A DNA stretch of 64,000 nt from an uncultured Thermoanaerobaculia bacterium (GTDB taxonomy: Bacteria > Acidobacteriota > Thermoanaerobaculia > Thermoanaerobaculales > Sulfomarinibacteraceae), in assembly GCA_964420405.1 (NCBI GenBank), contig CAYQTL010000004.1:71706-135705 (forward strand), given 5' to 3'. Both the position numbers and the translations under genes were made by a program. Under the pieces are notes generated by a model. That model saw only the letters and a program-made list of their open reading frames with translations, was not told the origin of the DNA and ran no database searches. Numbering within the stretch: the stretch's first letter is position 1; every line of letters begins with the position of its first letter. Shown piece by piece: positions 40,223 to 60,253 of this stretch.

Positions 40223-40243
40223 TGACCTCCGGTCCGTGCGTCG

Positions 40244-41359
40244 TCACAGCTCGCGGTGGAGCTCCGCGAGGCGCTGACGGCACTCGACCATCATCGCCTC
40301 GAAGCCGTCGCTGTCGCCGGCCTCGACCGCCGCGGCCCACCGGCCGACGGCGTCGGCGAGATGCCGCGCCCGACCGCCGACGTCACCCGCGAGACGCTGG
40401 ATCTCGAAGTACAGCGCCGGGTTCTCCCACGCCACCTGGCGTGTGGTGTGCAGCTGCCGGCCGAAGGTGACGCTGGCCACGTCGGCGAGCTCCTCGGAGC
40501 CGATGCCGCTGCGGGCGACCGCGAGCCCGAACGCCAGGTTCAGCAGGTGTGTCATCCCCAGCACCACCCCCATCCGCCGGTCGTGCTCGGCGACGGACAT
40601 CTCCACGAGGCGCGCACTGGTGCCGGCGAACAGGCCACGCACCAGCGCCACGTCGTCCGCCGAGCCGTCGCTGCAGAAGACGATCGAGCGCCCCTCGAGC
40701 ATCCGCACATCGGGCCCGAACATCGGATGGAACGACACCACCCGCACGCCGGCCGCCCGGGCGGCTTCGAGGTCGCCCGCGAGGTGCGCCTTGATGCTCG
40801 CCATCTCGGCCACGACGCCCCGCGGGCGGAGCTCGACCAGCTCCGCGAGGACCCCGGCACAGGCCGACATCGGCACCGCCAGCACCACCAGGTCGGCGTC
40901 CGCGACCTCGGCGAGCTCGCCGACCTCCGGAAACGACGTCTCACCGTCACCGGGGTCCAGCACCCGCACCCGGTGCCCCTGGCCGGCGAGGTACCGCGTG
41001 ATCCACCGGCCCATGCCGCCCTTGCCGCCGGCGACCACCACGTCGAGAGCGTCGCCCGACCAGCGCACCTCCTGTTGCACCGCCTGCTCCTCGACCGCCT
41101 TCTCGATCAGGAGTCGCGCCAGGTCGCGGCCGAGGCGGTCGTCGAGGCCGAGCAGGCGGCTGGCATCCTCGAATCGGCGGTAGACCGCGGTCTCGACCTC
41201 GAAGTCGCGCAGCGGCACGCCGAGCCCGCTCTTCAGCTTCCCGATCTGGCGCGCCAGCTCGAGCCGCTCGCACACCAGGTGCAGGATGCGGCGGTCGAGG
41301 GCCTCGATGTCCCGGCGGTGCTGCTCGAGCAGCTCGCGGCTGGGCGGTGCGTCCGTCAT
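40244..41359 (-). CDS. tyrA: Bifunctional chorismate mutase / prephenate dehydrogenase
   Basis: 371 aa. N-terminal CM_2-type helix bundle (ELLEQHRRDIEALDRRILHLVCERLELARQIGKLK). NAD-binding VVVAGGKGGMGRW. Prephenate dehydrogenase core (SFHPMFGP). Confidence 0.85.
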   Translation of the reverse strand: MTDAPPSRELLEQHRRDIEALDRRILHLVCERLELARQIGKLKSGLGVPLRDFEVETAVYRRFEDASRLLGLDDRLGRDLARLLIEKAVEEQAVQQEVRWSGDALDVVVAGGKGGMGRWITRYLAGQGHRVRVLDPGDGETSFPEVGELAEVADADLVVLAVPMSACAGVLAELVELRPRGVVAEMASIKAHLAGDLEAARAAGVRVVSFHPMFGPDVRMLEGRSIVFCSDGSADDVALVRGLFAGTSARLVEMSVAEHDRRMGVVLGMTHLLNLAFGLAVARSGIGSEELADVASVTFGRQLHTTRQVAWENPALYFEIQRLAGDVGGRARHLADAVGRWAAAVEAGDSDGFEAMMVECRQRLAELHREL

Positions 41360-41517
41360 CGGTTCCTCCCGAGGGGCGGCCGACGACGGTGGAGGGTCCC
41401 GCCGTCGCCGGCGGGCCCGTCGCGCTCAGCTCACGCGCACGCCCGCCGGCCGAAGGTCAGCCGATAGTGGATCCAGGCGATCGCGGAGCTCATGAGCTCA
41501 TCGTACCGCACTTCCTC

Positions 41518-41553
41518 CCTCGTCCGTTTCCGCGTCCGTGTCCGAGCCCGAGC
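41518..41553. repeat. Hexamer array, CGTCCG flavour: ctcgtc cgtttc cgcgtc cgtgtc cgagcc cgagca
   Basis: Read directly. It contains gcgtccgtgtccg, which is also found in reverse complement at about 60086-60100 and, one base shorter (cgtccgtgtccg), near 60349-60360. Confidence 0.6.
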
Positions 41554-41669
41554 AGCGAGGGGATCAGCGGCAGGGGCAGATGGCGGCGACGGAGATCAGC
41601 GGCGGTGGGCAGACTCATCGACGGCATCGCCGGGGCTGCACGGCAGGAGGTGCGTGCTGGAGATCGAGG

Positions 41670-42113
41670 TCAGCTCGACTCCGCCCGCAGCGGGTGGTGC
41701 CACCGCAGGCCGGGGAACCGGTCGAAGTCGGAGTCGGTGCTCACCAGGGTGCAGCCGTGCTCGATCGCGACCGCGGCGTGCTGGGCGTCGGCGACGAGCT
41801 TCCCCGTCGCACCGGCAGTCCGGCATAGCCGTTCGAAGATCTCCAGATGGCGCGGACCCGGCGACACGATCCGGGCGGTGGGGCGGGCCGTGAGCTCGGC
41901 CACGAAGGCGAACACCTCGGCGAGCGTCGACGGGCGCCGGAAGACCTTCGGGTTGGTGGCGATCCGGACCACGCCGCCGAGCACCAGAGTCGAGAGCGCG
42001 AACGGCGACGGCGACGTCGCCAGCCCGGTGACCCACCGGGCGTATGCCGGGTGCTCGTCGCAGGCGTCGATCCGGTGGGCGTACACGAGGACGCTCACGT
42101 CCGGCAGGATCAC
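41670..42113 (-). CDS. vapC: PIN-domain toxin of a type II toxin-antitoxin system
   Basis: 3' part of track ORF 41670..42371. GTG 42113 forms a GTGA overlap with the antitoxin stop. Sequence VILPDVSVLVYAHR...DAQHAAVAIEHGCTLVSTDSDFDRF is typical of PIN. Confidence 0.8.
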   Translation of the reverse strand: MILPDVSVLVYAHRIDACDEHPAYARWVTGLATSPSPFALSTLVLGGVVRIATNPKVFRRPSTLAEVFAFVAELTARPTARIVSPGPRHLEIFERLCRTAGATGKLVADAQHAAVAIEHGCTLVSTDSDFDRFPGLRWHHPLRAESS

Positions 42114-42367
42114 CGCCGCTCCCCGTACCGCGCCTCGTCCTCCGCGACCATCAGCTCCCGGGGCCGGTCGAGATCGACCCCTTCGCGGAGCCCGTCGCCA
42201 CCGACCGTGACGAGGCGGAACGGCCGATCCGGTTCCGGCTGCTGCTCGCGCTTGAGCGCGTCGTCCAACACCTTCGCGATGAACCCGCTGAGGCTGGCGC
42301 CCTCCGCCGCAGCCCGCCGCTTCGCCGCCTCGAGCAGATGTTCGTCGAGCGAGATCGTCGTTCTCAT
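42110..42367 (-). CDS. vapB: Type II antitoxin (VapB-like, RHH/MazE-type N-terminus)
   Basis: Track ORF 42110..42481, trimmed to ATG 42367 (MRTTISLDEHLLEAAKRRAAAEGASLSGFIAKVLDDAL). 4-nt overlap with vapC. Confidence 0.7.
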   Translation of the reverse strand: MRTTISLDEHLLEAAKRRAAAEGASLSGFIAKVLDDALKREQQPEPDRPFRLVTVGGDGLREGVDLDRPRELMVAEDEARYGERR

Positions 42368-42779
42368 GCATACGATCATACCATCATGATGCACTGATGC
42401 CACATTTGAGGTGCTCGGAGGCCGAGAGTGCGCTGCGGGCGGTGGAAGGTCTCCGTCCGTCGCCGGACGAGCCGTCAGCATGGGTGCCGACTCGGCCCGG
42501 TCTCATCGAGGTCAACTTCATCGGCATGGACCCCGCGCTCGGCGACGCCGGCGACACCTGCGTGCTCGAGGACGTCGAGCTCCCCCTGCTGGTCTTCGGG
42601 TAGCTCGCCCTGGTCCGCCCGGGCAGGACGCTGGAGGTCGACGGTGCGCAGGTGCCGCTGCCGCGGCCCGCCGGTCTGGCGCTGGAGAAGCTCCTCACCG
42701 ACCGGTCGGGCGTCCAGGGTCGTCCGACGACGGGCGCCGCGACGGGTGGCATACGCAGCACATCCGCTACGATGGGCCG

Positions 42780-43238
42780 ATGATCCTGATCGCCGCGATG
42801 GGGCCGGACCGGGTGATCGGGGCCGGGGACGGGATGCCGTGGTCGGTGCCGGCGGAGTACGCGCGGTTCCTCGACCGGATCCGCGACCAGACCGTGCTGA
42901 TGGGCCGGCGATCGTGGGAGATCTTCGGCGGCGACCTGACGTCGGCAGAGAACGTCGTCGTCAGCCGGAGTCCGGCACGTGTCGGGGGCGCGCACGCCTG
43001 CGGCTCGATGGAGGCCGCGGTCGCCCTGGCCCGGTCGTTCGGTCGGAAGGTGTTCTCGGCCGGCGGCGCATCGGTCTACCGCCAGACCATGCCCCTCGCC
43101 GACGCCATGGAGCTGTCGGTCATCGCGGGCGAGTGGGAGGGAGACACGTACTTCCCCGAGTTCGACCCGGCGGTGTGGCGGGTCGCCTCCCGCGAGCCCG
43201 GCGACGGCTTCGAGGTCCTGCACTACCGCCGCCGCTGA
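42780..43238 (+). CDS. folA: Dihydrofolate reductase
   Basis: Last 152 codons of track ORF 42411..43238 (MILIAAMGPDRVIGAGDGMPWSVPAEYARF...VLMGRRSWE...GGASVY). Confidence 0.85.
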   Translation: MILIAAMGPDRVIGAGDGMPWSVPAEYARFLDRIRDQTVLMGRRSWEIFGGDLTSAENVVVSRSPARVGGAHACGSMEAAVALARSFGRKVFSAGGASVYRQTMPLADAMELSVIAGEWEGDTYFPEFDPAVWRVASREPGDGFEVLHYRRR

Positions 43239-43266
43239 CCACCGAAGGAGCGCGTTCTCCCCATCC

Positions 43267-43319
43267 GATCCCGATACCCGCACGAGACGAGAAGCACCGT
43301 CAGGATCGGAGAGGCGGGT
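43267..43319. repeat. Short degenerate HAE-like hairpin (gatccc gatacc ... aggatc ggagag) between convergent gene ends
   Basis: Read directly. It carries the left boundary CATCCGATCCCGAT. Confidence 0.4.
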
Positions 43320-43328
43320 GGATGCGGT

Positions 43329-44123
43329 TCACGACTGCACCCGCCGCACCCAGGCGACGATCATCTCGGCGAGCTCCCGCGGGCGCTCGACGACGACCGC
43401 GTGACCGGCGCCCTCGAGGACCCGGAACGTGGCACCGGGGATCGTCTCGGCGAGCGCCCGGCACCGCTCCCGCGGAATGAACCCGTCCTCGCCGGCCGCC
43501 GCCACGAGAGTCGGGCACCGGATCGCGCCGAGCTCGCCGCCGAGCTCGAAGCTCTCGGCCGAGTCGAGCAGGCCGATCAGGCCCTCGAACCAGGACGGGG
43601 GCAGCTTCGAGATCTGCCGCCGGCGCTCGGCCCGCTCCTCGCCGTGGGACTCCAGGTACGCCCGCGAGTACACCACCGGCTCGAGGACGTCCGACAGGTG
43701 GCCCCGGTCGTCGCTCTCCAGGGAGTCGACGCACGCCTGCCGCCAGCGGGCCACCTCGTCCGCCATCGACGCCGTGAACCCGTCGGCGGACGCGATCGAG
43801 ACCAGCGACCGCACCCGTCCTGGCCTCCGGGCGGCCAGCAACGCGCCGACCGCCCCGCCGAAGGAGGTCCCGACGACGTGGACCGAGCCCTCGCCGACGG
43901 TATCGAGCACCGCGGCCACGTCAGGCACGTGGTCGCCGACATCGGCCGGTGCCGGCCCACCTGTCAGCAGCTGCCCGCGCAGGTCGCACCGGATCACCCG
44001 CAGGTGCGGCCGCAGCCCCGCCGCCACCGGCTCCCAGCTCACCGCCGACATGGCGATGCCGTTGAGCAGCAGCACCGGCGGGCCGTCCGGGTTGCCGTCG
44101 ACCAGGTGGAACAGCCCGGCCAT
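43329..44123 (-). CDS. Alpha/beta hydrolase
   Basis: 3' part of track ORF 43329..44909, starting at ATG 44123. Nucleophile elbow GTSFGG. C-terminal GAGHAVVVERP. Confidence 0.8.
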   Translation of the reverse strand: MAGLFHLVDGNPDGPPVLLLNGIAMSAVSWEPVAAGLRPHLRVIRCDLRGQLLTGGPAPADVGDHVPDVAAVLDTVGEGSVHVVGTSFGGAVGALLAARRPGRVRSLVSIASADGFTASMADEVARWRQACVDSLESDDRGHLSDVLEPVVYSRAYLESHGEERAERRRQISKLPPSWFEGLIGLLDSAESFELGGELGAIRCPTLVAAAGEDGFIPRERCRALAETIPGATFRVLEGAGHAVVVERPRELAEMIVAWVRRVQS

Positions 44124-45007
44124 CAGTCCTCCGGCGGGGTCCAGTCGAAGTCGAGCCGCTTGGTGCGGGCGAACTCGAGGATCATGCCGAAGAAGGTCCT
44201 CGGCTGCTCGATGTAGACGACGTGGCCACTGCCCGGGATCGTCTCCCACCGGGTGCTCGGGAGGATGTCGAGGATCTTGCGCTGCTGCCACAGCGGGATC
44301 GCGCGATCCTGCTCGCCCGCGACCATCAGCGTCGGGGTCCGGATCGCACGGTACCCCGGCATGTTCTCCTCGAGGGCGTCGAAGAACGGGTCCTGCGCCT
44401 CGGTCAGCCGGATCAGGCAGTGGCGATGGTCGATGTAGCGGTCGTAGAACCGTTGCCGCATGGCGTCGAGCTGGGCGGGGTCGAGCCGGGACACGAACGC
44501 CTCGCCGAAGATCTTCTCGTACATGTAGTGGGTGTACAGGTCGAACGCCTCCGGGCTGCCGCGGTAGAAGCGCAGCGACAGGGCCTCGTACATCTCGAAC
44601 AGGGCCTCGTGGCTGAGGAGGATCCCCGACAGGACCAGGGTGTGGAGACGGTGCTGGTACAGCCGCGCGAAGTCGAGCGCGATGAACCCGCCGTAGGAGA
44701 TCCCCATCAGGTGGACCTTCGCGACCCCGGCCTCGTCCATGATCAGGTCGAGGTAGCGCGCGAACTCGGGGATCGAGTACGGGATGTCGTCCTTCGACGA
44801 GTCGCCCTGGCCGAGGTAGTCGTACAGGATGACGTCGTGGCTCGGCGCCAGCAGCGGCAGGAACCCGTACCACGCCTTGGTGTGCATGGCGAGCCCGTTG
44901 AGCAGGCACACCGCTTCACGGTCGCCTGTGCCGTGATACTCCCACCACACCCTCTGCCCGTCTCCGACGTCGAGGTGCCCGCTGCGATCCGGCTGGATGT
45001 CTGGCAT
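44123..45007 (-). CDS. Alpha/beta hydrolase
   Basis: 294 aa. Nucleophile elbow GISYGG. C-terminal GSGHVVYIEQP. 1-nt overlap with the next hydrolase gene. Confidence 0.8.
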   Translation of the reverse strand: MPDIQPDRSGHLDVGDGQRVWWEYHGTGDREAVCLLNGLAMHTKAWYGFLPLLAPSHDVILYDYLGQGDSSKDDIPYSIPEFARYLDLIMDEAGVAKVHLMGISYGGFIALDFARLYQHRLHTLVLSGILLSHEALFEMYEALSLRFYRGSPEAFDLYTHYMYEKIFGEAFVSRLDPAQLDAMRQRFYDRYIDHRHCLIRLTEAQDPFFDALEENMPGYRAIRTPTLMVAGEQDRAIPLWQQRKILDILPSTRWETIPGSGHVVYIEQPRTFFGMILEFARTKRLDFDWTPPED

Positions 45008-45018
45008 GTGGTCGCTCC

Positions 45019-45110
45019 GATCCCATTCCCGATCCCGCTCCCGATCCCGATCCCGATCCCGATGCCCGCCCCGTCGGGATCGGGAGCGGGACCGGGATCG
45101 GAATCGGAGC
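45019..45110. repeat. Arms-only HAE: an imperfect 92-bp hairpin with 8 left units (gatccc attccc gatccc gctccc gatccc gatccc gatccc gatgcc), a 9-nt spacer, and 6 right units (gggatc gggagc gggacc gggatc ggaatc ggagc)
   Basis: Read directly. It fills the whole gap between the thiolase stop (45110) and the hydrolase start (45007). Confidence 0.85.
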
Positions 45111-46315
45111 TAGCTCGCCGCCCGCAGCACCGTGCAGACGCTGGCGCAGATCGGGCCGCCGATGTTGAACGTGGCGGCGAGCCTCGGCGCCGACACCTGC
45201 AGCGGCTCCGGCGCCTTGCCGAGCAGCTGCATGGCGCTCCAGCCGATCATGGCGACGCCGGTGGCTCCCACCGGGTGCCCCTTGGCGATCAGCCCGCCGG
45301 AGGTGTTGACGGCGCACTCGCCGCCGGGGGCCGCCTTGCCGTCCTTCCAGTACGCCGCGCCCTGGCCAGGGCCGACCTTGCCGAGGACCTCGACGCCGAT
45401 CGCGCCCATCACCGTGAAGCAGTCGTGGACCTCGGCGACGTTGACGTCGGCGGCGGTCGCGCCGGCCATCTCGTAGGCCGCGGCCATCGCCCGGTAGGCG
45501 CCCTGCGGCCGCAGCACGTCGCGCCCCTCCTTCATCAGCGGGTCGGTCGCCTGGCCGTAGCCGGCGATCTCGACGCACTCGGCCTTCGGCACGCCGAGCC
45601 GCTCGAGCCCCTCGTCGGTGGCCAGGATCAGCCCGGCGTAGCCGTCGGAGATCTGCGAGCAGTCGTACGTCTTCAGCGGCAGCCCCTCGACGATGTAGCG
45701 GTTGCGGCCCTCCGGCGACGCCGCCTGCTCCAGCGTCACCTCGATCCCCTTCATCTGGGCGTAGGGATTGTGCTGGGCGTTGGCATACTCCTGGACCGAG
45801 ATCCGCGCCAGATCCTCCTCGGTCACGCCCCAGTTGTTCATGTAGTCCCACATGACCTCGGCGAACAGGTGCGGGAAGACGTAGACCTTGCCCTCGCGCT
45901 CGTCGGGATGGCTGAAGTAGCCGAGCACCTCGCCGATCAGCGCGCCGTCCATCTTGCCCTCGTCGTTGCGCATCTTCTCGTAGCCGACGGCGATGCCCAC
46001 GTCGCCGTGGCCGAGGCGCAGCTTCTGGATCACCGACACCACCGCCTGGCCGCCGGAGGCGCACGCGTTCTCGACCGCCTCGATCGGCTTGCCCCCGAGG
46101 CCCGGCACCATCGCCACCAGGCCGGCCAGCAGACCCTGCTGGTTGAGCGAGAAGTTGCAGGTGGCGCCGATCGAGGCGACGTCGACCGCCGACGCCTCGA
46201 CGCCGATCTCCCCGCAGGTCTCGGTGACCGACGCCGCCACGATCTGCGGCACCGTCATGTCGAGCAGCTTGCCGAACTTCGATTGATGGTACGCGGCGAT
46301 GTAGATCGGTTTCAT
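45110..46315 (-). CDS. Thiolase, SCP-x / archaeal-type acetyl-CoA acetyltransferase-like
   Basis: Track ORF 45110..46327, with ATG 46315 preferred (GGAGGG 4 nt upstream). Active-site region VENACASGGQAV. C-terminal GHPVGATG and NIGGP. Confidence 0.85.
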   Translation of the reverse strand: MKPIYIAAYHQSKFGKLLDMTVPQIVAASVTETCGEIGVEASAVDVASIGATCNFSLNQQGLLAGLVAMVPGLGGKPIEAVENACASGGQAVVSVIQKLRLGHGDVGIAVGYEKMRNDEGKMDGALIGEVLGYFSHPDEREGKVYVFPHLFAEVMWDYMNNWGVTEEDLARISVQEYANAQHNPYAQMKGIEVTLEQAASPEGRNRYIVEGLPLKTYDCSQISDGYAGLILATDEGLERLGVPKAECVEIAGYGQATDPLMKEGRDVLRPQGAYRAMAAAYEMAGATAADVNVAEVHDCFTVMGAIGVEVLGKVGPGQGAAYWKDGKAAPGGECAVNTSGGLIAKGHPVGATGVAMIGWSAMQLLGKAPEPLQVSAPRLAATFNIGGPICASVCTVLRAAS

Positions 46316-46356
46316 TCTTCCCTCCATCTCGGTCCCCTTGTTGTCGTCGCCCTTCC

Positions 46357-46633
46357 GATCCCGTTCCCGATCCCCTTCCCGATCCCGACGAAACCCCTCG
46401 AATCGCGTGCGACGGCCGACGACGGAGGCACAGAGACACGGCGAAGCGCGTCAGATGCGGGCGGTGACGACCTCTCGCCGGGTCGCATCACCCGATCCTC
46501 GTGGACCCGCGCGTCGAGCCAGGAGAGACACCCCCGAGGCTGCCGAGTGCCCTCCTCTGAACCTCTGTGGCTCCACCTCGTTCCGGTCACGATCCACGTC
46601 AACGGGATCTGGATCGGGATCGGGATCGGATCG
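46357..46633. repeat. HAE full copy (277 bp). Left arm gatccc gttccc gatccc cttccc gatccc; right arm gggatc tggatc gggatc gggatc.
   Basis: Read directly. The interior shares the exact blocks cacagagacacg (46429-46440) and gtcgcatcac (46482-46491) with the 50189 copy, and gaggctgccg (46536-46545) with the 39942 copy. Internal complementarity between ggaggcacagag (46424-46435) and cctctgtggctcc (46562-46574). Confidence 0.85.
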
Positions 46634-46640
46634 GACGGCG

Positions 46641-48188
46641 TCACTGGTCTTCGTCTCCGTGGGACCTCCCCCACAGCTTCGCCAGCTCCGCCTTGACGAC
46701 CTTGCCGTACGGGGTGCGCGGAAGATCCTCCACCACCCGCACGTGCTTCGGGATCTTGTACCGGGCGAGGCGCGCCTCGAGAAACATCGACAGCTGCTCG
46801 ACCGTCGGCTCCGCGCCTTCCACCGGCACCACGAACGCCGCCCCCACCTCGCCCCACGTGTCGTCGGCGACGCCGATGACGGCGACGTCGGCCACGTCCG
46901 GGTGCTGCAGCAGCTGGCTCTCGATCTCGGCGGGGTAGACGTTGACCCCGCCGGAGATGAACATGTCCTTGGCGCGGCCGGCGATGTAGAAGAAGCCGTC
47001 GTCGTCGACCCGTGCCATGTCGCCGGTGTGGAACCAGCCCTGGGCGTCCCGCGACTCGGCGGTCGCCGCCGGGTCGTCCCAGTAGCCGGCGCTGACGTGG
47101 GGCCCGCGGAACACCAGCTCTCCGACCTCTCCCGGCGGCAGCTCGTGGCCCGACTCGTCGACCACCCGGGCCTCGGTGAACATCAGCGGCCGGCCGATCG
47201 AGCCCGCCTTGGCCCACGCCTCCTCGTCCGACATGGCGAAGCAGTTGACGCCGACCTCGGTGAGCCCGTAGCCCTGCCGCAGGACCACTCCCCGCTCGCG
47301 GTACAGCTCGACCAGGTGCTTCGGCAGCGGCGCTCCGCCGGAGATGAACCAGCGGACGTGGTCCAGCGACACGGTCCGGAGCTCGGGGGCCTCGGCGAGC
47401 ATCGACCAGATCGTCGGCACCCCGAGCACCACGGTGCACCGCTCCCGTTCGATCACCCGCCACACCTCCGATGCGTCGAACGCCGTGTGCAGCACGACCG
47501 TGCCGCCGGCCGCCACCAGCGGCGTCAGGAACGCACCGAGACCGCCGGCGTGGTACAGCGGAGTGAACACCGGGCTGACGTCGTCCTCGCCGAGCTGCCA
47601 GCACACCACGGTGTTGTAGGCGTTCCACGCCACCATCCGGTGCGGCGTCACCACGCCCTTCGGCCGGCCGGTGGTCCCGCTGGTGTACAGCAGGCAGTAG
47701 GGCGCCTCCGGGTCGGGTCGGGCCCACACCTGGCCGCCCGCCGCCTGGGCCGCCACCAGCTCGCCGTGGCGGTCGTCGAGATCGCCCACCGGTGCGTCGA
47801 GAGCCACCCAGCGCTCCACCTCGACCTGCGGCCGCAGCTCGCGGACGGTGGCCTCGAAGGCTCCGTCGTAGACCAGCGCCTTGAGGCCGCAGTGCCCGAC
47901 GATGTAGGCCAGCTCCGCGGCCCGCAGCTTGGTGTTGAGCGGCACCAGCACGACGCCGCTCTTGCCGGCCGCGAAGAACGCGTCGAGCATCTCCAGCCGG
48001 TTGCCCGCCAGGATCCCGATCCGGTCGCCGGGCTTCAGGCCGAGCTCGAACATCCACATCCTTGCGCAGGCCACCGCCCGCCGGTCGAGCTCGGCGTAGG
48101 TCAGGCGGCGGCCGTCCGCCGCCAGCACCAGCGCGGTGCGGTGCGGTGACAGCCGCGCCCGCTCGCCGAGCAGGTCGCCGTGGATCAT
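46641..48188 (-). CDS. AMP-dependent acyl-CoA synthetase/ligase (ANL superfamily)
   Basis: 3' part of track ORF 46641..48452, starting at ATG 48188 (GGAGAGGAGGA upstream). Motifs YTSGTTGRPKGV, GYGLTE, TGDMARVDDDGFFYIAGRAKD and PRTPYGKV. Confidence 0.9.
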   Translation of the reverse strand: MIHGDLLGERARLSPHRTALVLAADGRRLTYAELDRRAVACARMWMFELGLKPGDRIGILAGNRLEMLDAFFAAGKSGVVLVPLNTKLRAAELAYIVGHCGLKALVYDGAFEATVRELRPQVEVERWVALDAPVGDLDDRHGELVAAQAAGGQVWARPDPEAPYCLLYTSGTTGRPKGVVTPHRMVAWNAYNTVVCWQLGEDDVSPVFTPLYHAGGLGAFLTPLVAAGGTVVLHTAFDASEVWRVIERERCTVVLGVPTIWSMLAEAPELRTVSLDHVRWFISGGAPLPKHLVELYRERGVVLRQGYGLTEVGVNCFAMSDEEAWAKAGSIGRPLMFTEARVVDESGHELPPGEVGELVFRGPHVSAGYWDDPAATAESRDAQGWFHTGDMARVDDDGFFYIAGRAKDMFISGGVNVYPAEIESQLLQHPDVADVAVIGVADDTWGEVGAAFVVPVEGAEPTVEQLSMFLEARLARYKIPKHVRVVEDLPRTPYGKVVKAELAKLWGRSHGDEDQ

Positions 48189-49156
48189 GTCGCGTCCTCC
48201 TCTCCGCCGGCCGACGACGCGGTCACGGGCGCCGGAGGCGGCTGCGACAGCACGGCGGAGAGGGCGTCGAGCAGCGCCGCCGGGCACTCCCGCTGGGGGA
48301 TGTGACCGCAGCCCTCGACGAGCGTCAGACGGGCGGCCGGCAGGCCGTCCATCAGCCGCGCCGCGTAGTCGAGGTCCATCAGCTCGTCGGCCTCGCCCCA
48401 CACCAGGTCCACCGGCACCGTCACCTCCTCGAGCCGGCCGTCGAGCACCCACTCCCCCATTTCGCCGGCGGTCCGGGCGAACCGCGCGGCCGGCCCGACG
48501 CGGGCGTGGCGCACGACGTGGTCGAGGACGAAGCCGGGGATCTCCGGCGTGTCGGGACCGGTCAGCCCGGCCATCGTGCGTCGCGCCGCGTCACGGTCGG
48601 TCGGGAACACGTCCACCCGCGGATCGGGCTCGATGATCGCGCCGCCGTTGACGGCCACGATCCGGGACACCTCCGAGGGTCGCTCGCGGGCGATCAGCAT
48701 CGCGAGCCACGCCCCCAGCGAGTTGCCCACCAGGATCGGAGGCTCCTCGACCTCGGCGTCGAGCACCGCCCGTACGCCGCCGAGCAGCATCGGCACCGAG
48801 ATCGGCCCATCGTCCGGGTCACTGCCCCAGTGCCCGGGCAGGTCCGGGATCACCAGCCGGTGGCGTTCGGCGAGGGGCCGTACCACGCGGCCCCAGGCGC
48901 CCGCCTGGTCGCCGGCGCCGTGCAGCAGCACCAGGGTCGGACCGCCGGCGCCTCCCGCGAAGTAGGTGACGGCCCCGTCGGGCCCGGACACGGTCCGCTC
49001 CTCGAGGCCCGCCTGACGCAGCGCCGCGCGGCTGAAGTAGGCGTCGACCGTCAGCGGTCGCTTCCACATCATCCACCCGCCGGTGGCGAGGGCGGCGAGC
49101 CCGAGCACCACCAGCACGGTCACGATCCGGATGACGATCCGTCCTCCTCCGGCCAT
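48185..49156 (-). CDS. Alpha/beta hydrolase with an N-terminal TM anchor
   Basis: Track ORF 48185..49219, trimmed to ATG 49156 (GAGGAGG upstream). Contains HGAGD, nucleophile elbow GNSLGA, and C-terminal GCGHIPQ. ATGA overlap with the ligase gene. Confidence 0.8.
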   Translation of the reverse strand: MAGGGRIVIRIVTVLVVLGLAALATGGWMMWKRPLTVDAYFSRAALRQAGLEERTVSGPDGAVTYFAGGAGGPTLVLLHGAGDQAGAWGRVVRPLAERHRLVIPDLPGHWGSDPDDGPISVPMLLGGVRAVLDAEVEEPPILVGNSLGAWLAMLIARERPSEVSRIVAVNGGAIIEPDPRVDVFPTDRDAARRTMAGLTGPDTPEIPGFVLDHVVRHARVGPAARFARTAGEMGEWVLDGRLEEVTVPVDLVWGEADELMDLDYAARLMDGLPAARLTLVEGCGHIPQRECPAALLDALSAVLSQPPPAPVTASSAGGEEDAT

Positions 49157-49178
49157 TCCCACCTCCTCGGGGGCGCCG

Positions 49179-50168
49179 CTACAGCCGGAACGCGGCTCCG
49201 GCCTGGTTGTACCCCACACCGGAGCCGACGAACACCACCAGATCTCCCGGACCGGCCTTGCCGTGCTCGAGAGCGTCGTCGAATGCGATCGGGACGCACG
49301 CCGATCCGGTGTAGCCCCACTTCTCCATCACCGTGTGGGCCTTCGACATCGGCAGGCCGAGATCGTCCATCACGACCTCGATGGACGGCCTGCGGACCTG
49401 GGTGAAGACCGCGAGGTCGATCTCGTCGAGCGCGAAGCCCCCGTTCGCCGCCAGCGCCCGCACCACCTTCGGCCAGCCCTCGTGGTTGACCTCGGGCGGG
49501 TAGCGCTCGAGCATCCGCACCGTGGTGCGGCCACCGCGAACCGCGTCCTCGGTCGCCGGCTCGGCGGTGCCGCCGGCGTAGATCCCCCAATGGCGGTGGA
49601 ACGCCCCGTCGGCCCGCGACGCCGACGCCACGAACCCCGGCGACGCGGCCGGCTCGAGCACCGCCGCGCCGGCGCCGTCGCCGTAGAAGAAGACCATCGG
49701 GTCGTCGGGCGCCGCCAGCTTGTGCATCATGTAGACGCCGACCACCAGCACCGTCCGCAGGTTTGGGTTGGTGGCGATCATGCCGGCGGCGGCGGCGAGG
49801 CCGGTCGGGAAGGACGCGCACGCGCAGCCGATGTCGAAGGTGCCGGCGTTGACCGCCCCGAGCTTGTGCTGCACCACCACCGAGGTGGCCGGCGTGATGT
49901 AGTCAGGCGAGTCCGTGCCGACGATCAGGAGGTCGACCTCCTTCGGGTGGCGGCCCGCCCGCTCCAACGCCTGCCGCGCAGCCGGCAGCGCCACGTCGGA
50001 GGTCGCCCAGTCGTCCGGCGCCCAGAACCGCGTCCGGATCGCCGACGACGCCTCCATCTTGTCGACGAAGTCGGGCAGGTGCGCGAACCGCTCCCGCAGG
50101 ACGTCGTTGGAGACCTCGATCTCGGGAATGTAGCGTCCCGTGGACATGATCCTGGCGTATCGCGTCAT
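49179..50168 (-). CDS. KASIII (FabH)-like thiolase-fold enzyme with a non-canonical active site
   Basis: Track ORF 49179..50255, trimmed to ATG 50168 (GGAGGAA upstream). The Cys region DIGCACASF is present. By-eye alignment to E. coli FabH puts Thr at the His244 position (VFTQVRRPSIE versus VPHQANLRII) and Tyr at the Asn274 position (GYTGSACVP versus GNTSAASVP). Confidence 0.8.
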   Translation of the reverse strand: MTRYARIMSTGRYIPEIEVSNDVLRERFAHLPDFVDKMEASSAIRTRFWAPDDWATSDVALPAARQALERAGRHPKEVDLLIVGTDSPDYITPATSVVVQHKLGAVNAGTFDIGCACASFPTGLAAAAGMIATNPNLRTVLVVGVYMMHKLAAPDDPMVFFYGDGAGAAVLEPAASPGFVASASRADGAFHRHWGIYAGGTAEPATEDAVRGGRTTVRMLERYPPEVNHEGWPKVVRALAANGGFALDEIDLAVFTQVRRPSIEVVMDDLGLPMSKAHTVMEKWGYTGSACVPIAFDDALEHGKAGPGDLVVFVGSGVGYNQAGAAFRL

Positions 50169-50188
50169 CGTTCCTCCGTCCGAGCCCT

Positions 50189-50492
50189 GTTTCCGCTCCC
50201 GATCCCGTTCCCGTTCCCGACGGGAGCTCTCGAGTCGCGCGCGCCGGTCAACCACAGAGACACGAAGGCACGGAGGAGAGCTTCCGATGGCAGACCCGGA
50301 GTAACCTCACCGTGTCGCATCACACTCTCGTCGAGACTCGAGCTCACGCGTCCCGACGGACCCGCCGATGGCCGGTCGACGCTATCCTCGCTGCTCGCTC
50401 TCCGTGCCTCCGTTGCTCCGTGGTTCCACCCCATCCCGGTCCCGAGCCGCGTCATCGGGACCGGGATCGGGATCGGGATCGGGATCGGAACG
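50189..50492. repeat. HAE full copy (304 bp). Left arm gtttcc gctccc gatccc gttccc gttccc; right arm gggacc gggatc gggatc gggatc gggatc ggaacg.
   Basis: Read directly. Shared blocks cacagagacacg (50253-50264) and gtcgcatcac (50314-50323). Internal complementarity between gaaggcacggaggagagc (50264-50281) and gctctccgtgcctcc (50397-50411). Confidence 0.85.
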
Positions 50493-50526
50493 GACGTCCC
50501 GGCGGCGGGTGATCGGTGTCGCGCAC

Positions 50527-51309
50527 TCACGTCCCGATCACCAGCCCACCATCGACCGACAGCACGGCGCCGGTGATCCACGAGGCGGCATCGGAGGCGA
50601 GCCAGCAGTACGCCTCGGCGATGTCCTTCGGGTCGCCGATCCGGCCGAGCGGGGTGTGCTGGACCATCCCGTCGAGGACCTTCTGGGGCATCGACGCGAG
50701 GATCTCGGTGGCGACGAAGCCCGGCGCGACCACGTTGACCCGGATCCCGTACCGCCCGAGCTCCCGCGCCCAGGTCCTGGTCATGCCGATGACGCCGGCC
50801 TTGGTGGCGACGTAGTTGGTCTGGCCGAAGTTGCCGTTGAGGCAGGCCACCGAGGAGGCGTTGAGCACCACCCCTCCGCCGGCCTCGACCAGGTGCGGCA
50901 CCACCGCCCGCGTGCAGTTGAAGACGCCCGTCAGGTTGACCCCGATGACGGCGTTCCACTGCTCGTCGCTCATCCGGCCTTTGAGCTCGCCGTCCTTGAG
51001 CTTGACGAGCTGGCCGTCGCGCACGATGCCGGCGTTGTTGACCAGCACGTCGATGCGGCCCCACCGGTCGTGGACCTCGCCCGCGGCGGCGTCCACCGCC
51101 GCGGGGTCGGACACGTCGACCCGCTGGAACAGCGCCCGACCTCCGGCGGCCTCCAGCTCCCGCAGGAGCTCGTCCGTGCCGTCCTCGGTCACGTCCCACA
51201 CGGCAATCAGCGCGCCCTCGGCGGCGAACCTCTCGGCGGTCGCGCGGCCGATCCCGGCGGCCCCGCCGGTCACGACCACGGCCTTGTCCCTGAGCCCAGT
51301 CTCGATCAT
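50527..51309 (-). CDS. Short-chain dehydrogenase/reductase, FabG-like 3-oxoacyl reductase
   Basis: 3' part of track ORF 50527..51969, starting at ATG 51309 (GGGGGAGAG upstream). Motifs TGGAAGIGRA, NNAG and YVATKAG (catalytic YxxxK). Confidence 0.85.
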   Translation of the reverse strand: MIETGLRDKAVVVTGGAAGIGRATAERFAAEGALIAVWDVTEDGTDELLRELEAAGGRALFQRVDVSDPAAVDAAAGEVHDRWGRIDVLVNNAGIVRDGQLVKLKDGELKGRMSDEQWNAVIGVNLTGVFNCTRAVVPHLVEAGGGVVLNASSVACLNGNFGQTNYVATKAGVIGMTRTWARELGRYGIRVNVVAPGFVATEILASMPQKVLDGMVQHTPLGRIGDPKDIAEAYCWLASDAASWITGAVLSVDGGLVIGT

Positions 51310-51440
51310 CACTCTCCCCCTCGTCGTGGTGTCTCGCAGCGGTCGGCGCACACGCCGCGGGGCTCGTACCCCGCGGCGCCGCGTCCCGTGTCGGTGCGCG
51401 ATCGGGCGCGATGGCGGACCACTTCCGTCACGGTCATCCG

Positions 51441-51498
51441 CCCCGTGCCGGTCCGCGCCGTCGGTGACGGACGCGGACGCTGGCACGGACGCGGAGAC
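51441..51498. repeat. Imperfect hairpin built from CGTCCG-flavour hexamers: ccccgtgccggtccgcgccgtc / ggtgac ggacgc ggacgc tggcac ggacgc ggagac
   Basis: Read directly. It lies between the TonB-dependent receptor stop (51510) and the SDR start (51309). Confidence 0.6.
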
Positions 51499-51509
51499 CA
51501 CATCACTGT

Positions 51510-54257
51510 CTAGAAGCGGTATCGAAGGCCCAGCTGGACCTCCCTCGGGTTGAGCGTCGCCCGGTAGTTGCCGAAGTTCGGGTTGTTCACGTACGCCGCC
51601 GTCGGGTTGGCGAGCGTCGGACCTGCGAAGAACTCCGCGTTGTCGACGGACGTCACGTCGTAGTTGGTCCAGTCGAACAGGTTGAACGCCTCGACGATGA
51701 GCTCGAGCTCGCCGGCGTCGCCGAACCGGAAGGCCTTTGCGAGCCGCAGGCTGACCGACTTGAACTCGGGTCCGTCCATGCTGTTGCGCTCGACGCCGGC
51801 GGGGCGGTCCGAGTTCTTGCCGTCGCCGTTGAAGTCGTAGCCGAGGATGTGGTTCCACGGCTGGCCGGTGCCGTACTCGAGGATCGGCGCGATGGTGATG
51901 TCCCACGGCGCGAAGAACACGCCCGAGATCACCACGCGGAGCTCCTCGTCGGAACGGCTGCGTCCCCACTCGCCCTCGATGTTCGCCGGATCCGACGGGT
52001 AGCCGGTCGGGAACGCCGGGCTGAAGTCGTCGGCGATGTTCTTCTTGTCCGAGTAGGTCGCCGACGCCGTGATGAGGTGGCCGGCGTCACCGATGGTGCC
52101 GTTCACGCTCAGCACCACCGCCTTGTACTCCGAGTGACCTTCGTTGGAGTACACGTTGATCTGGTTGTAGCTCGGGTTGAGCCGCACCGGGTTCTGGTTG
52201 CCGCCGAAGTTCTGGTCGCGGATCACGATCTCGTTCTCTCCCTCGACCCAGACCCCCTCCAGATCGGCGTACAGCGCGGTCTCGCCGAGCCGCTGGGTGA
52301 AGCCGAGGGTCGCCTGCAGCGACTCGGGGGTCCGCAGGCTGTCCTCCATCAGGGTGATGTCGGGGTTCAGTGCGAAGCCGGTGTTCTCCGGATCGTTGGG
52401 ATCGATGAAGATGCCGAACTGGGGCAGCGCCACGTTGGTGCGCGTGACGCGCCCGGTGACGCCGTTCTGCTGCTCCTCGGTGAACTGGGGCACCAGCAGG
52501 TAGCGTCCCGCGAACAGGCCGACGCCGCCGCGCATCACGCTACGGCCGTCGCCCGACAGGTCCCAGCTGAAGCCGGCCCGGGGCTGGAAGTTGTTCCCGT
52601 CGACCGACCGGCGGCCGGTCAGCGGGTGGACGAAGTCCGGGTTGTTGCCGTCGGTGTCGTAGTCGTAGCGCATGCCGAAGCTGAACGTGAAGTTGGGCGT
52701 CACGCGCCAGTCGTCGTGGACGAACGCGCTGAAGATGTCGGTGTCGACGTCCACGTCTGACGAGCCCTCGCCGTAGATGTAGGCCGCCAGGAACGAGCGG
52801 TCGTCGAACGCCCACAGGAAGAGCCCCTCCTGGAAGGTGTCGATCACCGAGCGCTCGGCGACGTTGAACCACGACGCGCCCACCTTGAGGTCGTGCGAGC
52901 CGACCTGCCAGTGGAAGGTGTCGCGCAGCTCGAAGTAGTCGCCCTCACCGATCAGGTCGCCGACGGTGTTGTTGCCGATCCGCAGCGTGGTGCCGCCGGA
53001 GAACCACTCCTCGGGCTCACTGGAGTTGGTGGGCTCGTCGTAGTCGCGGCTGCCGATCTGGAACCGCGCCTCGTTGAGCCGGCTGCCGTCGCCGAGGACC
53101 CAGGTGTTGCCGAGCGTGAGGTTCCAGTTGTCGCGGTTCAGCGCCTGGCCGTTGGAGACGTCCGCCACCCCGCCCACCCGGAAGTTCTCCTCCCGGTACC
53201 GCTCGTACACCAGCTTGGCCATGCCGCTGATGGACGAGGTGAACTGGTGGTCCAGGCTGAGCAGACCGAGGGTCCGCTCCTTCGGGTTCGCGTAGTCGGT
53301 CGCCTGGTCCGCGAACGCGCCGCCCGGCCGGAAGGGGGCGATGTCCTCCTCGTCGATGTACTCCAGCGACAGGAAGTAGTGGGTCTTGTCGGGCACGATC
53401 GGGCCACCGATGGTGGCGCCGACCTGATAGCGCTGGAAGTCCTGCTCGCCGGTCTCGAGCTCGCCGGTGGCGCGCATCGAGTCGTCCCGGTAGAAGCCGA
53501 ACACGGAGCCGTGGACCTCGTTCGTGCCCGACTTGGTGACCACCGACAGGGCGCCGCCGGCCGAGCCGCCGATCTCCGAGTCGAACCGGCTGCTGACGAC
53601 CCGGAACTCGCGGATCGCGTCCTGGGAGAACCGCGCCCGCGACAGGCCGAGCGCCTGGTCGGTGAACTCGACGCCGTCGACCAGGATCGACGACTGGCTG
53701 GCGTTGCCGCCGGCGCCGATCACCGGCCCGCCGCCGATGAAGCGGAAGGCGCCGCGCTCGCGCTGTACGCCCGGGGTGATGAAGGCGAGCTTCTCGAACT
53801 CGCGATCCTGCACCGGCAGCGCCTGGATCTGCTCGGGCACCACGTTCGTCGACGAGTCGACCTTGAAGACGTCGACGATCGGCGCCTCGGCGGTGACGGT
53901 GATGGTCTCCGACACCTGGCCCCGCATCCTCATCACCAGCCGCGCGGTCTGGCCGACCCGCAGCACCACCTCGTCCTGGACCACCGGCGCGAACCCGTCG
54001 AGGTTCGCCTCCACCCGGTAGGTCCCCGGCGGCAGGGCCTTGAAGGTGGCGGCGCCGGTCTCGTTGCAGATGCCGATCCGCTCGGCGCCGGTCTCCGTGT
54101 TCTCGACCCGGACCGTCACGCCGGGCAAGGCCAGTGCGTCCGCGTCCCGGACCTCCACCTCCACGACACCGGTGCTGACCTGCGCCGACGCCGGCACCGC
54201 CAGCGCCAGCAGCACGACCGGCACCACCCAGCGACACACGACCCCAAACCCTCTCAT
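51510..54257 (-). CDS. TonB-dependent receptor with an N-terminal carboxypeptidase-regulatory-like domain (Oar-like)
   Basis: Track ORF 51510..54602, trimmed to ATG 54257 (GGGGAGGA upstream). Signal peptide MRGFGVVCRWVVPVVLLALAVPASA. CarboxypepD_reg-like GVVEVEVRDADALALPGVTVRVEN...PGTYRVEA. Plug region and C-terminal beta-barrel ending LGLRYRF. Confidence 0.85.
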   Translation of the reverse strand: MRGFGVVCRWVVPVVLLALAVPASAQVSTGVVEVEVRDADALALPGVTVRVENTETGAERIGICNETGAATFKALPPGTYRVEANLDGFAPVVQDEVVLRVGQTARLVMRMRGQVSETITVTAEAPIVDVFKVDSSTNVVPEQIQALPVQDREFEKLAFITPGVQRERGAFRFIGGGPVIGAGGNASQSSILVDGVEFTDQALGLSRARFSQDAIREFRVVSSRFDSEIGGSAGGALSVVTKSGTNEVHGSVFGFYRDDSMRATGELETGEQDFQRYQVGATIGGPIVPDKTHYFLSLEYIDEEDIAPFRPGGAFADQATDYANPKERTLGLLSLDHQFTSSISGMAKLVYERYREENFRVGGVADVSNGQALNRDNWNLTLGNTWVLGDGSRLNEARFQIGSRDYDEPTNSSEPEEWFSGGTTLRIGNNTVGDLIGEGDYFELRDTFHWQVGSHDLKVGASWFNVAERSVIDTFQEGLFLWAFDDRSFLAAYIYGEGSSDVDVDTDIFSAFVHDDWRVTPNFTFSFGMRYDYDTDGNNPDFVHPLTGRRSVDGNNFQPRAGFSWDLSGDGRSVMRGGVGLFAGRYLLVPQFTEEQQNGVTGRVTRTNVALPQFGIFIDPNDPENTGFALNPDITLMEDSLRTPESLQATLGFTQRLGETALYADLEGVWVEGENEIVIRDQNFGGNQNPVRLNPSYNQINVYSNEGHSEYKAVVLSVNGTIGDAGHLITASATYSDKKNIADDFSPAFPTGYPSDPANIEGEWGRSRSDEELRVVISGVFFAPWDITIAPILEYGTGQPWNHILGYDFNGDGKNSDRPAGVERNSMDGPEFKSVSLRLAKAFRFGDAGELELIVEAFNLFDWTNYDVTSVDNAEFFAGPTLANPTAAYVNNPNFGNYRATLNPREVQLGLRYRF

Positions 54258-57372: not shown

Positions 57373-57499
57373 GCTGTACCCTGTCGCTGACGATTCCGCT
57401 GACGCTGACCCTGTCGCTGACGTCGTCCCTGTCACTGCCCCTGCTCCTGACTTCGAGCCGTCGACCATCGGGAACGGGATCGGGATCGGGATCGGATCC
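57373..57499. repeat. Composite hexamer array: about 14 units of CTGNCG flavour (ccctgtcgctgacg occurs twice, 30 bp apart), then gggaac gggatc gggatc gggatc ggatcc
   Basis: Read directly. It lies between convergent gene ends (57322 and 57606). Confidence 0.7.
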
Positions 57500-59879: not shown

Positions 59880-59907
59880 GGCTCGCAGTCTACGCTTCCT
59901 TCCATCC

Positions 59908-60164: not shown

Positions 60165-60253
<89 letters not shown>

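Follow-up and report, generated by a model that had tools for sequence, protein, structure and literature searches.

A Composite Palindromic Repeat Cassette with Nested Tandem-Repeat Arms in Operon Spacers of Thermoanaerobaculia

Results and Discussion

A 64,000-nt stretch of DNA from an uncultured Thermoanaerobaculia bacterium (GenBank assembly GCA_964420405.1, contig CAYQTL010000004.1, positions 71,706 to 135,705; hereafter the window) was analyzed around a 304-bp element at positions 50189-50492, which lies between an SDR gene and a KASIII-like gene. This element is a non-coding composite palindromic repeat cassette, made of nested inverted arrays of short tandem repeats. Repeat-armed cassettes of this kind form a lineage-wide class in the spacers that run from a stop codon to the next Shine-Dalgarno (SD) sequence, where they are replaced whole while their arms stay complementary. 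Our tentative reading is that the cassette acts at the RNA level as an intercistronic hairpin, in the manner of repetitive extragenic palindromic (REP) sequences and bacterial interspersed mosaic elements (BIME), and not as a terminator.

Structure of the Cassette

The window has a G+C content of 72.5%. Within it, the element fills most of a 358-nt spacer from the SDR stop codon to the KASIII-like ATG in a minus-strand operon. Its parts are nested. From outside to inside, they are a hexamer pair, (CCCGNT)n/(GGGATC)n, an octamer pair, AACCAC(RRAGNCAC)n...(GTGNCTYY)nGTGGTT, and a core of about 115 nt. The parts and the two flanking genes are listed below.

50189-50220, minus strand: outer arm, on the left of the plus strand, hexamer array GTTTCC GCTCCC GATCCC GTTCCC GTTCCC (array detection; Tandem Repeats Finder (TRF), period 6)
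50250-50281, minus strand: inner left arm, octamer array AACCAC AGAG ACAC GAAG GCAC GGAG GAGAGC (from the sequence; pairs with 50397-50427)
50282-50396, minus strand: core of about 115 nt with small hairpins of its own and the shared block GTCGCATCAC (alignments; homologous to the cores of the 46-kb and 39-kb copies described below)
50397-50427, minus strand: inner right arm, octamer array GCTCTCC GTGCCTCC GTTGCTCC GTGGTT (TRF 50400-50422, period 8)
50429-50471, minus strand: local short hairpin CCCGGTCCCGA-GCCGCGTCA-TCGGGACCGGG, with the look of a miniature hexamer hairpin (minimum free energy (MFE) structures)
50454-50492, minus strand: outer arm, on the right of the plus strand, (ATCGGG)6 (TRF 50454-50488, period 6, 93% matches)
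50527-51306, minus strand: SDR gene, upstream of the element (Pfam adh_short, E 1.6e-60)
49179-50168, minus strand: KASIII-like gene, downstream of the element (Pfam ACP_syn_III and ACP_syn_III_C)

On the mRNA, which reads as the minus strand, the array at 50454-50492 is the 5′ C-rich arm and begins about 35 nt past the SDR stop codon. The array at 50189-50220 is the 3′ G-rich arm, GGGAAC GGGAAC GGGATC GGGAGC, and reaches to 20 nt ahead of the KASIII ATG, where it lies just upstream of the SD sequence GGAGGA. These two outer arms pair with each other in the MFE fold of both strands. Further inside, 50264-50281 (GAAGGCACGGAGGAGAGC) pairs with the reverse complement of 50397-50411 (GGAGGCACGGAGAGC), leaving a 3-nt bulge. 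The short hairpin at 50429-50471 adjoins and overlaps the right outer array. By Pfam, the minus-strand cluster runs in the order SDR, KASIII, alpha/beta-hydrolase, AMP-dependent ligase, thiolase-like protein, and alpha/beta-hydrolase; a gene for a TonB-type outer-membrane protein lies upstream of the SDR-KASIII cluster.

Homologous Copies and Related Elements in the Window

Three long copies in the window (39941-40223, 46355-46634, and 50189-50492) are homologous throughout, with a mean column identity of 75%. The two other copies, and an element that resembles them in its arms, are as follows.

46355-46634, minus strand: homologous full copy, between the AMP-ligase stop (46641) and the thiolase ATG (46315/46327) (alignments, exact blocks)
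39941-40223, no strand: third homologous copy, between convergent genes, with a degenerate right arm (CGTCGGGATCGGTCGGATCG) (blastn, alignment)
25620-25899, minus strand: element whose outer hexamer arms are alike but whose interior is unrelated (z about -1 for the interior against the other copies)

Global alignment of 46357-46633 with 50189-50492 gave 76% identity, with a z of 35.7 against dinucleotide shuffles. The interiors of the 46-kb and 50-kb copies, taken without their hexamer arms, were 72% identical, with z values of 9.0 and 7.5 (dinucleotide shuffles). Two exact blocks are shared in equal order and orientation, CACAGAGACACG at 46429 and 50253 and GTCGCATCAC at 46482 and 50314. Between the 39-kb and 46-kb copies, blastn found 70% identity over 114 nt (E 6e-7), and the alignment z was 12.2. 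Control intergenic regions reached z values of at most 2.7 against the elements and against each other, and the reverse complement gave -0.4. A consensus fold of the three long copies contained double changes in 19 of 84 pairs, a count drawn from three sequences only. The element at 25620-25899 was considered as a fourth homologous copy and rejected, as it has only the arms in common with the others.

Two further hairpins of the SDR-KASIII region carry hexamer arms.

45014-45110, minus strand: short-form hexamer hairpin (arms of 37 nt, loop of 23 nt), between the thiolase stop and the hydrolase ATG (inverted repeat I22, 89% complementary)
51440-51505, minus strand: hairpin of another hexamer family, (GTCCGY)n/(RCGGAC)n, in the spacer upstream of the SDR gene (array detection, sequence)

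Across the 64 kb, hexamer arrays of 5-8 units with a period of 6 (GGGATC, GGGAAC, GGGAGC) were found at 10 sites. All 10 are intergenic; five are inverted pairs and five stand alone. The motif GGGATCGGGATCGG, allowing up to two mismatches, had 64 matches in the window against 3.3 expected. The C-rich arm comes first and the G-rich arm second in every paired element of the window, and this polarity is valid for both strands because the elements are palindromic.

A sequence-only reading made before this analysis had described a 304-bp element between the SDR and KASIII-like genes, interior blocks shared with 46357-46633 in the same order and orientation, complementarity of 50264-50281 to 50397-50411, and related insertions within one operon. 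Its coordinates and gene context are correct, both blocks occur in both copies, the inner complementarity was confirmed, and the pairwise identity stands above that of the control intergenic regions. The related insertions amount to three hexamer-armed elements plus the (GTCCGY)n hairpin. The third copy, the arms-only element at 25620-25899, the nested tandem-repeat architecture, and the octamer family of the inner stem go beyond that reading.

No convincing target-site duplication was seen by eye at the flanks of the three long copies. A blastn search with four element interiors against all fetched loci (designated by L numbers) returned no homologues outside the window at that sensitivity. 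A 1694-bp Logan contig from SRR15425350 (L115) is identical to window positions 48907-50491 and ends exactly inside the hexamer array. This break is consistent with a genome-wide repeat that interrupts assemblies.

Orthologous Junctions in Relatives

The gene order sdr-kas-abh-acs-thiolase-abh is conserved across Acidobacteriota. The closest KASIII relatives share 83% amino-acid identity and come from Thermoanaerobaculia metagenome-assembled genomes (MAGs) labeled Candidatus Sulfomarinibacteraceae or 'Holophagae'. Genome and metagenome collections contained no relatives above 83% KASIII identity, apart from the identical 1.7-kb Logan contig. The SDR-KASIII junction measures 0-30 nt in Terriglobia and many Thermoanaerobaculia. 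It is empty in L116 and L312, where the SDR stop codon overlaps the SD sequence (GGGACCTGAGGAGGTCGTCATG in L312). Both loci are at the top KASIII identity of 83%, as are L117 and L313, which have filled junctions. In the rest of the nearest clade, the junction is 60-400 nt long and is filled with repeat-armed hairpins. Compared across orthologous clusters, the insertions have the element-like distribution that the sequence-only reading had proposed.

In almost every genome with long spacers, the hairpin arms consist of tandem 6-8-nt units, and the unit varies by genome. Examples of the units are GAATTAG/GAATTCG, GAGTTTT with AACTCAA, GAATTTT with AATTCAA, ATTTCGG with GAAATCC, TTATGAG with TTCATCA, GTCCGC with GCGGAC, and CCCGNT with GGGATC. 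Many of these hairpins also have a G+C-rich inner clamp, CCGCCCACC...GGTGGGCGG. The (GTCCGY)n/(RCGGAC)n family, present upstream of the SDR gene in the window, fills the SDR-KASIII junction itself in L138, L317, and L318. TRF reported 4-10 short-period arrays per 10 kb in the nearest clade and a second subclade, against about zero in Terriglobia and other Thermoanaerobaculia loci.

Repeat-armed hairpins occupy the same four operon junctions across the clade. For 74 operon hairpins, the medians were 13 nt past the stop codon, 24 nt before the start codon, and a span of 98 nt. The 3′ base thus leaves just room for a ribosome-binding site, and the analogy to REP/BIME elements drawn in the sequence-only reading fits this placement. 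A scan of the genome collection with (GGGATC)4 gave sporadic matches in many phyla and showed no more than that several copies are present in a few Thermoanaerobaculales, Holophagae, Planctomycetota, and Desulfobacteraceae bins. The pattern GATCCCGATCCCGACG was too unspecific in high-GC genomes to be informative in the same kind of scan.

A separate conserved motif of about 60 nt, TTGACCGGAGGTGCCTGGCATCCCGATTCGCCGCGAATCGGCGTGCCTGGCATCCTCTCG, recurs in the spacers of several related genomes. It has two TGGCAT-N5-TTCGC/TGGCATCC elements, which are sigma-54 promoter-like by sequence. The motif sites are listed below.

L122, 292-453
L123, 406-557
L136, 2048-2440
L152, 6836-7000
L319 and L320
L120 and L122, further sites in the acs-thiolase spacers

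Arm Covariation and Cassette Turnover

The orthologous thiolase-abh1 hairpin could be aligned in 12 genomes, with 91.6% of cells paired. At the variable position of its unit, both arms change in concert from G-C to A-U or back. Double-change cells numbered 18, compared with 9.4 ± 2.0 in shuffles, and none of 500 shuffles scored as high. The covariation score was 0.197 versus 0.124. When the partner was slid by 1-3 columns as a control, pairing collapsed to 21-57%.

Cassette turnover was visible between close strains. L128 and L339, which are 96-97% identical in DNA, carry the same SDR-KASIII cassette. At their KASIII-hydrolase junction (L128 2400-2545), the hairpins between identical flanks are wholly different, with unlike loops and with GAGTTTT/AACTAAA arms in one strain and GAATTTT/ATTCAAA arms in the other. 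At the ligase-thiolase junction (L128 5010-5200), one strain has a solo GAATTAG array and the other an ATTTCGG/GAAATCC hairpin. Between the 96% identical strains of L139 (6795-7005) and L347 (2335-2455), the entire SDR-KASIII cassette differs, and L334 and L356 differ in array length by one 7-nt unit. These comparisons indicate that cassettes are exchanged as units and that arrays also slip. Slow vertical drift of junction-specific unit families was considered and dropped in view of whole-cassette replacement between 96%-identical strains. The three long window copies themselves are probably not recent, since their identity is only 72-76% and inspection by eye revealed no target-site duplication; the suggestion of recent mobility in the sequence-only reading was not supported for them.

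Predicted Folding and Other Signals

The region 50185-50495 folded at -180.9 kcal/mol on the minus (sense) strand (z -6.07, with no equally good fold among 100 shuffles) and at -162.0 kcal/mol on the plus strand (z -5.52). The long imperfect hairpin that had been expected from the self-complementarity is therefore predicted on both strands. The minus strand of 46350-46636 reached -148.8 kcal/mol (z -2.2), and 45014-45110 reached -80.9 kcal/mol on the minus strand versus -69.9 on the plus strand. The minus strand was the more stable one for all window elements, by 11-19 kcal/mol; four of these elements lie in minus-strand operons, and for them it is the transcribed strand. The sense strand was also the more stable one in 83 of 111 operon spacers. 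In operon spacers, transition mismatches that leave G-U on the sense strand numbered 176, versus 117 on the antisense strand, in a count that treats related hairpins as independent. The GC skew was -0.043 for the window and -0.10 to -0.14 for the elements (25612-25905, 39935-40232, 45010-45112, 46350-46636, and 50185-50495), although these are near-palindromes, with the minus-strand G excess lying within the stems. The strand signal is consistent with selection at the RNA level and is not proof of it, because the minus strand is also the G-rich strand.

In the short form (45014-45110), the TAG of the thiolase gene lies at the 5′ stem base, the sole SD-like GGAG of the hydrolase gene lies in the 3′ base, and the hydrolase ATG follows 6 nt beyond the stem. 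The position of the stop codon and the SD-like sequence in opposite strands of the stem base suggests structure-dependent translational coupling. A ribosome terminating on the thiolase gene would melt the stem base and might expose the GGAG of the hydrolase gene.

Of the window's 21 canonical quadruplex motifs, 13 fall within hexamer arrays. Both outer arms of 50189-50492 have a G3N3 x4 motif, the left one at 50198-50218 on the minus strand. A scan of 43500-52000 for intrinsic terminators gave a single site, which lies within a gene; the elements contained none, and their stems are not followed by a U-tract. No sigma-70-like promoter was found inside any element scanned. Rfam 15 at gathering score matched only a tRNA in the whole window, and an Rfam E-value scan of 39800-51600 gave only spurious sub-threshold matches to miRNA hairpins.

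Octamer Hairpins across Phyla

Judged by its sequence, the inner stem of 50189-50492 belongs to a family of octamer hairpins that occurs across phyla. The inner left arm (50250-50281) holds the pattern AACCACRRAGACACSAAG, which was used to retrieve octamer hairpins from other phyla. Species-representative genomes scanned with this pattern yielded at least 120 stretches, with about 139 chance matches expected in 596 Gb. Among the matches listed, an inverted partner forming 14 or more Watson-Crick pairs accompanies 72 of 119 loci. Clean AACCAC...GTGGTT hairpins, with a total span of 51-139 nt, number 44, and nearly all matches run on with further CAC-RRAG units. The clean hairpins are near-identical in sequence and occur in at least about 10 phyla, taking the labels on the MAG records: Cyanobacteriota, Bacteroidota, Chloroflexota, Planctomycetota, Verrucomicrobiota, Acidobacteriota, Pseudomonadota, Bacillota, Elusimicrobiota, and Calditrichota. 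Examples from loci L392-L511 are given below.

L395, 559-627
L409, 1677-1773
L434, 2259-2324
L489, 3486-3536

The variants of the arms keep their pairing in register (CACAGAG opposite CTCTGTG, CACCAAG opposite CTTGGTG); this set was chosen for complementarity, and its counts are not an unbiased test. In genomes of up to 62% G+C, the hairpins among the matches listed lie between convergent genes in 13 cases, between co-directional genes in 14, and between divergent genes in 2. They often occupy the entire gap between two stop codons. A search of Rfam with 15 octamer-hairpin loci returned no relevant match.

The window copy shares the main features of this family and departs from it in length. 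Its inner left arm (AACCACAGAGACACGAAGGCACGGAG) has the 5′ AACCAC followed by octamer units, a likeness that is circular for the window, where the pattern was partly derived from this copy, and independent for the other phyla. The inner right arm (50397-50427) ends in CTCCGTGGTT and pairs in register with the left arm. The inner hairpin spans about 178 nt around its core, outside the 50-140 nt of the family. Composites of hexamer arms and an octamer array also occur in a second species, Thermoanaerobaculales Prado016 (L026 7514-7700 and L103 6540-6718), where they were recognized via the octamer array and not via blastn of the interiors. L116 has a stand-alone (CACAGAGA)n hairpin.

Solo Arrays and Other Repeats in the Window

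The five solo hexamer arrays of the window are as follows, with C-type and G-type referring to the plus strand where noted.

5179-5218, no strand: solo hexamer array, C-type on the plus strand, upstream of a gene
22858-22892: solo hexamer array, C-type
38296-38323: solo hexamer array, C-type
57467-57499: solo hexamer array, G-type
59906-59933: solo hexamer array, C-type, upstream of a minus-strand gene

Short-period (CTGACG/GCTGAC)n arrays were observed at 57378-57455, directly upstream of the solo G-type array, and at 39900-39918. The minus-strand gene that bears the array at 59906-59933 upstream is divergent from a plus-strand tRNA gene (60165-60248), and further (GTCCGC)-like arrays lie at 60077-60100 and 60328-60360. 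Elsewhere, 15338-15484 consists of a 49-nt unit repeated three times in tandem, with the units 71-87% alike and each holding a small palindrome, GCCACCTTCCAGGTGGC. Two adjacent plus-strand genes share DNA that is 71-84% identical (36197-36288 with 37445-37536, and 36573-36845 with 37830-38102), and appear to be tandem paralogues.

Comparison with Known Repeats

REP/BIME elements stabilize upstream mRNA segments. The window elements resemble REP, BIME, and REPIN sequences of Enterobacteria and Pseudomonas as extragenic imperfect palindromes that occur in many copies at gene 3′ ends and between cistrons, with species-specific sequence. They differ in their arms, which are tandem hexamers lacking a unique REP consensus, whereas REP arms are unique sequences of about 20-40 nt. 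MITEs (miniature inverted-repeat transposable elements) and enterobacterial repetitive intergenic consensus (ERIC) sequences share a length of 100-300 bp, inverted repeats at their ends, hairpin formation upon transcription, and a place in intergenic spacers. The termini of the window elements are tandem repeats, in contrast, and sequence similarity to MITE or ERIC was not found. Nor was a target-site duplication or an autonomous insertion sequence (IS) of the kind associated with MITEs, no search having been aimed at a partner IS.

Cyanobacterial STRR heptamers were reportedly described by Mazel et al. in 1990. In Beggiatoaceae, Cyanobacteria, and Bacteroidetes, direct repeats of TAACTGA stand upstream of start codons (MacGregor 2015, PMC4679880), with only one inverted case reported, in a Beggiatoa genome (PMC4679880). 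Nostoc (TTTTGAA)n arrays are discussed in a preprint (bioRxiv 10.1101/2022.06.06.494920). All of these are intergenic tandem repeats near start codons, as here. The sister-genome unit GAATTTT is the Nostoc TTTTGAA rotated, and the sister-genome units GAACTGA/ACTGAGA resemble TAACTGA. The known arrays are mostly direct, with a period of 7, whereas those of the window form inverted pairs with periods of 6 and 8.

The closest counterpart of the hexamer arms is in Xanthomonas, whose genomes each have about 185 GGGAATC arrays, including 70-75 inverted pairs able to form stem-loops (PMC4692102). About 90% of these arrays are intergenic; most separate co-oriented genes, and few separate divergent ones (PMC4692102). 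Array length varies among related species, while the single or inverted-pair type is usually kept (PMC4692102). GGGAATC forms a G-quadruplex (G4) in vitro, with four units preferred, and its function is not known (PMC4692102). Nostoc has a counterpart, GGGGA(C/T)T (Rehm et al. 2015, PMC4692102). The window arrays are likewise tandem GGG units, GGGATC being one base from GGGAATC, and are likewise all intergenic, with half of them in close inverted pairs. They differ from the Xanthomonas and Nostoc heptamers in having a 6-nt unit and an Acidobacteriota host. Their polarity is also opposite to that in Xanthomonas, with the C-rich arm after the stop codon and the G-rich arm before the start codon, and the long form adds a nested octamer hairpin and a conserved core.

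The octamers have their counterpart in the paired tandem sites of Geobacter metallireducens, which fall into class 1 (GTTGCTYN x4), class 2 (TCTCCGTS x3), and class 3 (MTYCTGA x5) (PMC2700814). Dozens of copies lie between genes, also inside operons (proB-proA, MTYCTGA x5) (PMC2700814), and they were guessed to be binding sites for IHF/HU or global regulators (Aklujkar et al. 2009, PMC2700814). As in the window, 3-5 tandem units of 7-8 nt are paired on opposite strands at a variable distance. The strings TCTCCGTG and GTTGCTCC within the inner right arm (50397-50419) fit the class 2 and class 1 units, TCTCCGTS and GTTGCTYN, respectively, in a comparison by published consensus only. The window octamers differ from the Geobacter description in being nested inside G-rich hexamer arms.

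A literature search found no paper on intergenic repeats of Thermoanaerobaculia and none in which the strings of the hexamer or octamer arrays appear for bacteria. Within its incomplete coverage, such arrays in Acidobacteriota, the hexamer GGGATC, the nested composite, and the cross-phylum octamer hairpin were all unreported. The hexamer arms, the opposite polarity, the nested octamer hairpin, and the new phylum are new relative to known repeats.

Possible Roles of the Cassette

We tentatively favor action on RNA between cistrons, similar to that of REP/BIME elements. The cassette would be co-transcribed within the operon mRNA and would fold into a very stable long stem-loop that brackets the intercistronic spacer, bringing the end of one cistron near the start of the next. 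Such a stem-loop may obstruct mRNA decay or offer it a processing site and may influence translational coupling of the downstream to the upstream gene, and it would not terminate transcription. Support for it comes from the anatomy and homology of the copies, the fold of the sense strand, the absence of promoter, terminator, and Rfam signals, the conserved operon with its empty and filled junctions, hairpin placement, the strand signal, arm covariation, cassette turnover, the gene context of the octamer family, and the stem base of the short form. Several points weigh against this interpretation. The consensus structure of the long form comes from three sequences only, and the 46-kb copy is only marginally more stable than its shuffles. 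The folding advantage of the sense strand is confounded with strand composition, since a C-to-T bias on the non-template or leading strand would yield the same signal, and the wobble-pair count is affected by the relatedness of the hairpins. The G-rich arms could form quadruplexes instead of pairing. The solo arrays, at half of the 10 sites, allow no hairpin action at all. Read-through transcription, action on RNA, and the effects on decay and translation are, moreover, steps that we infer.

A somewhat unlikely alternative is that the cassettes are selfish or neutral repeat DNA that arises by slippage, spreads or is exchanged by recombination or transposition, and is tolerated, with no benefit to the host, in spacers where operon expression is not disrupted. 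Whole cassettes swapped between 96%-identical strains and one-unit indels would be expected of such DNA, as would a short-read contig that breaks at the array, as for a dispersed repeat. The empty sites in L116 and L312 mean that the operon works without the cassette. Many unit families are found at one and the same junction, and the Xanthomonas and Geobacter analogues have no function found for them. This explanation has more difficulty with the covariation of the arms at an orthologous site in 12 genomes and with the precise placement from just past the stop codon to just before the SD sequence. A transposase, a target-site duplication, or an autonomous partner was not identified either, the duplications having been judged by eye and no search having been made for a partner IS. 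The near-constancy of the octamer hairpin sequence in at least about 10 phyla is also hard to explain in the absence of constraint or active horizontal spread. How the cassettes spread is likewise something that we infer, and a selfish origin is compatible with an incidental effect at the RNA level.

It is unlikely that the arrays work mainly as DNA, through G-quadruplexes or i-motifs, cruciforms, or a protein-binding platform for a nucleoid protein or global regulator, and so modulate transcription or replication. In favor of such a role, each hexamer arm reads G3N3G3N3G3N3G3 on one strand, and most of the quadruplex motifs in the window lie in the arrays. The near-identical Xanthomonas unit forms G4 in vitro (PMC4692102), the Geobacter octamer sites were proposed for IHF/HU or a global regulator (PMC2700814), and the solo arrays at 5179 and 59906 lie upstream of genes. 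The compensatory changes, however, keep complementarity from arm to arm and not a fixed binding sequence, the unit sequence varies from genome to genome, and no binding protein for the arrays was identified. A quadruplex as a general property was rejected, as sister genomes use the AT-rich units GAGTTTT, GAATTCG, and TTATGAG at the same junctions. These AT-rich heptamers are unable to form G4. A quadruplex or protein-binding role is possible for the G-rich arrays, especially the solo ones, but with AT-rich units in the same architecture neither is its common denominator. Least probable, and in our view very improbable, is a transcription terminator or attenuator that partitions expression of the operon, which the sequence-only reading had listed among possible effects. 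The stem-loops are very stable, and among the matches listed the octamer family is enriched between convergent genes, often filling the gap from stop to stop. Several of the octamer-hairpin phyla have few canonical intrinsic terminators, which also speaks for termination. Termination is nevertheless unlikely because the stems lack a U-tract and because the conserved six-gene operon contains three or four such hairpins, with downstream genes that presumably have to be expressed. The arms are also C-rich 5′ and G-rich 3′ on both strands, which is not an A-tract/U-tract arrangement.

Conclusions

Earlier reports of intergenic arrays of 6-8-nt units are scattered over cyanobacteria, Xanthomonas, Geobacter, and Beggiatoaceae, and the function guessed differs in each. 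The locus studied here puts several array families into one conserved six-gene operon, with more than 150 orthologous loci for comparison. It offers a natural test bed, with empty and filled junctions, cassette replacement in strains about 96% identical, and compensatory evolution of the arms. Of most interest among the by-products are the clade-wide behavior of the cassettes at fixed intercistronic sites and the conservation of the octamer hairpin across phyla. It is doubtful, though worth stating, that the Thermoanaerobaculia hexamer and heptamer families, the octamer hairpin, and the Xanthomonas, Geobacter, and cyanobacterial arrays form one cross-phylum class of exchangeable intercistronic cassettes that home to the interval from stop codon to ribosome-binding site, are swapped whole between close strains, and retain complementary arms. 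If they do, a dedicated mechanism that mobilizes them or copies their arms, or a conserved host factor that reads them, would be implied. In practice, the arrays break short-read assemblies and inflate apparent intergenic variability. Purely selfish cassettes would be an unusual kind of mobile DNA with microsatellite ends. If the hairpins act on mRNA decay or translational coupling, they would represent a widespread and overlooked layer of operon tuning in poorly studied phyla.

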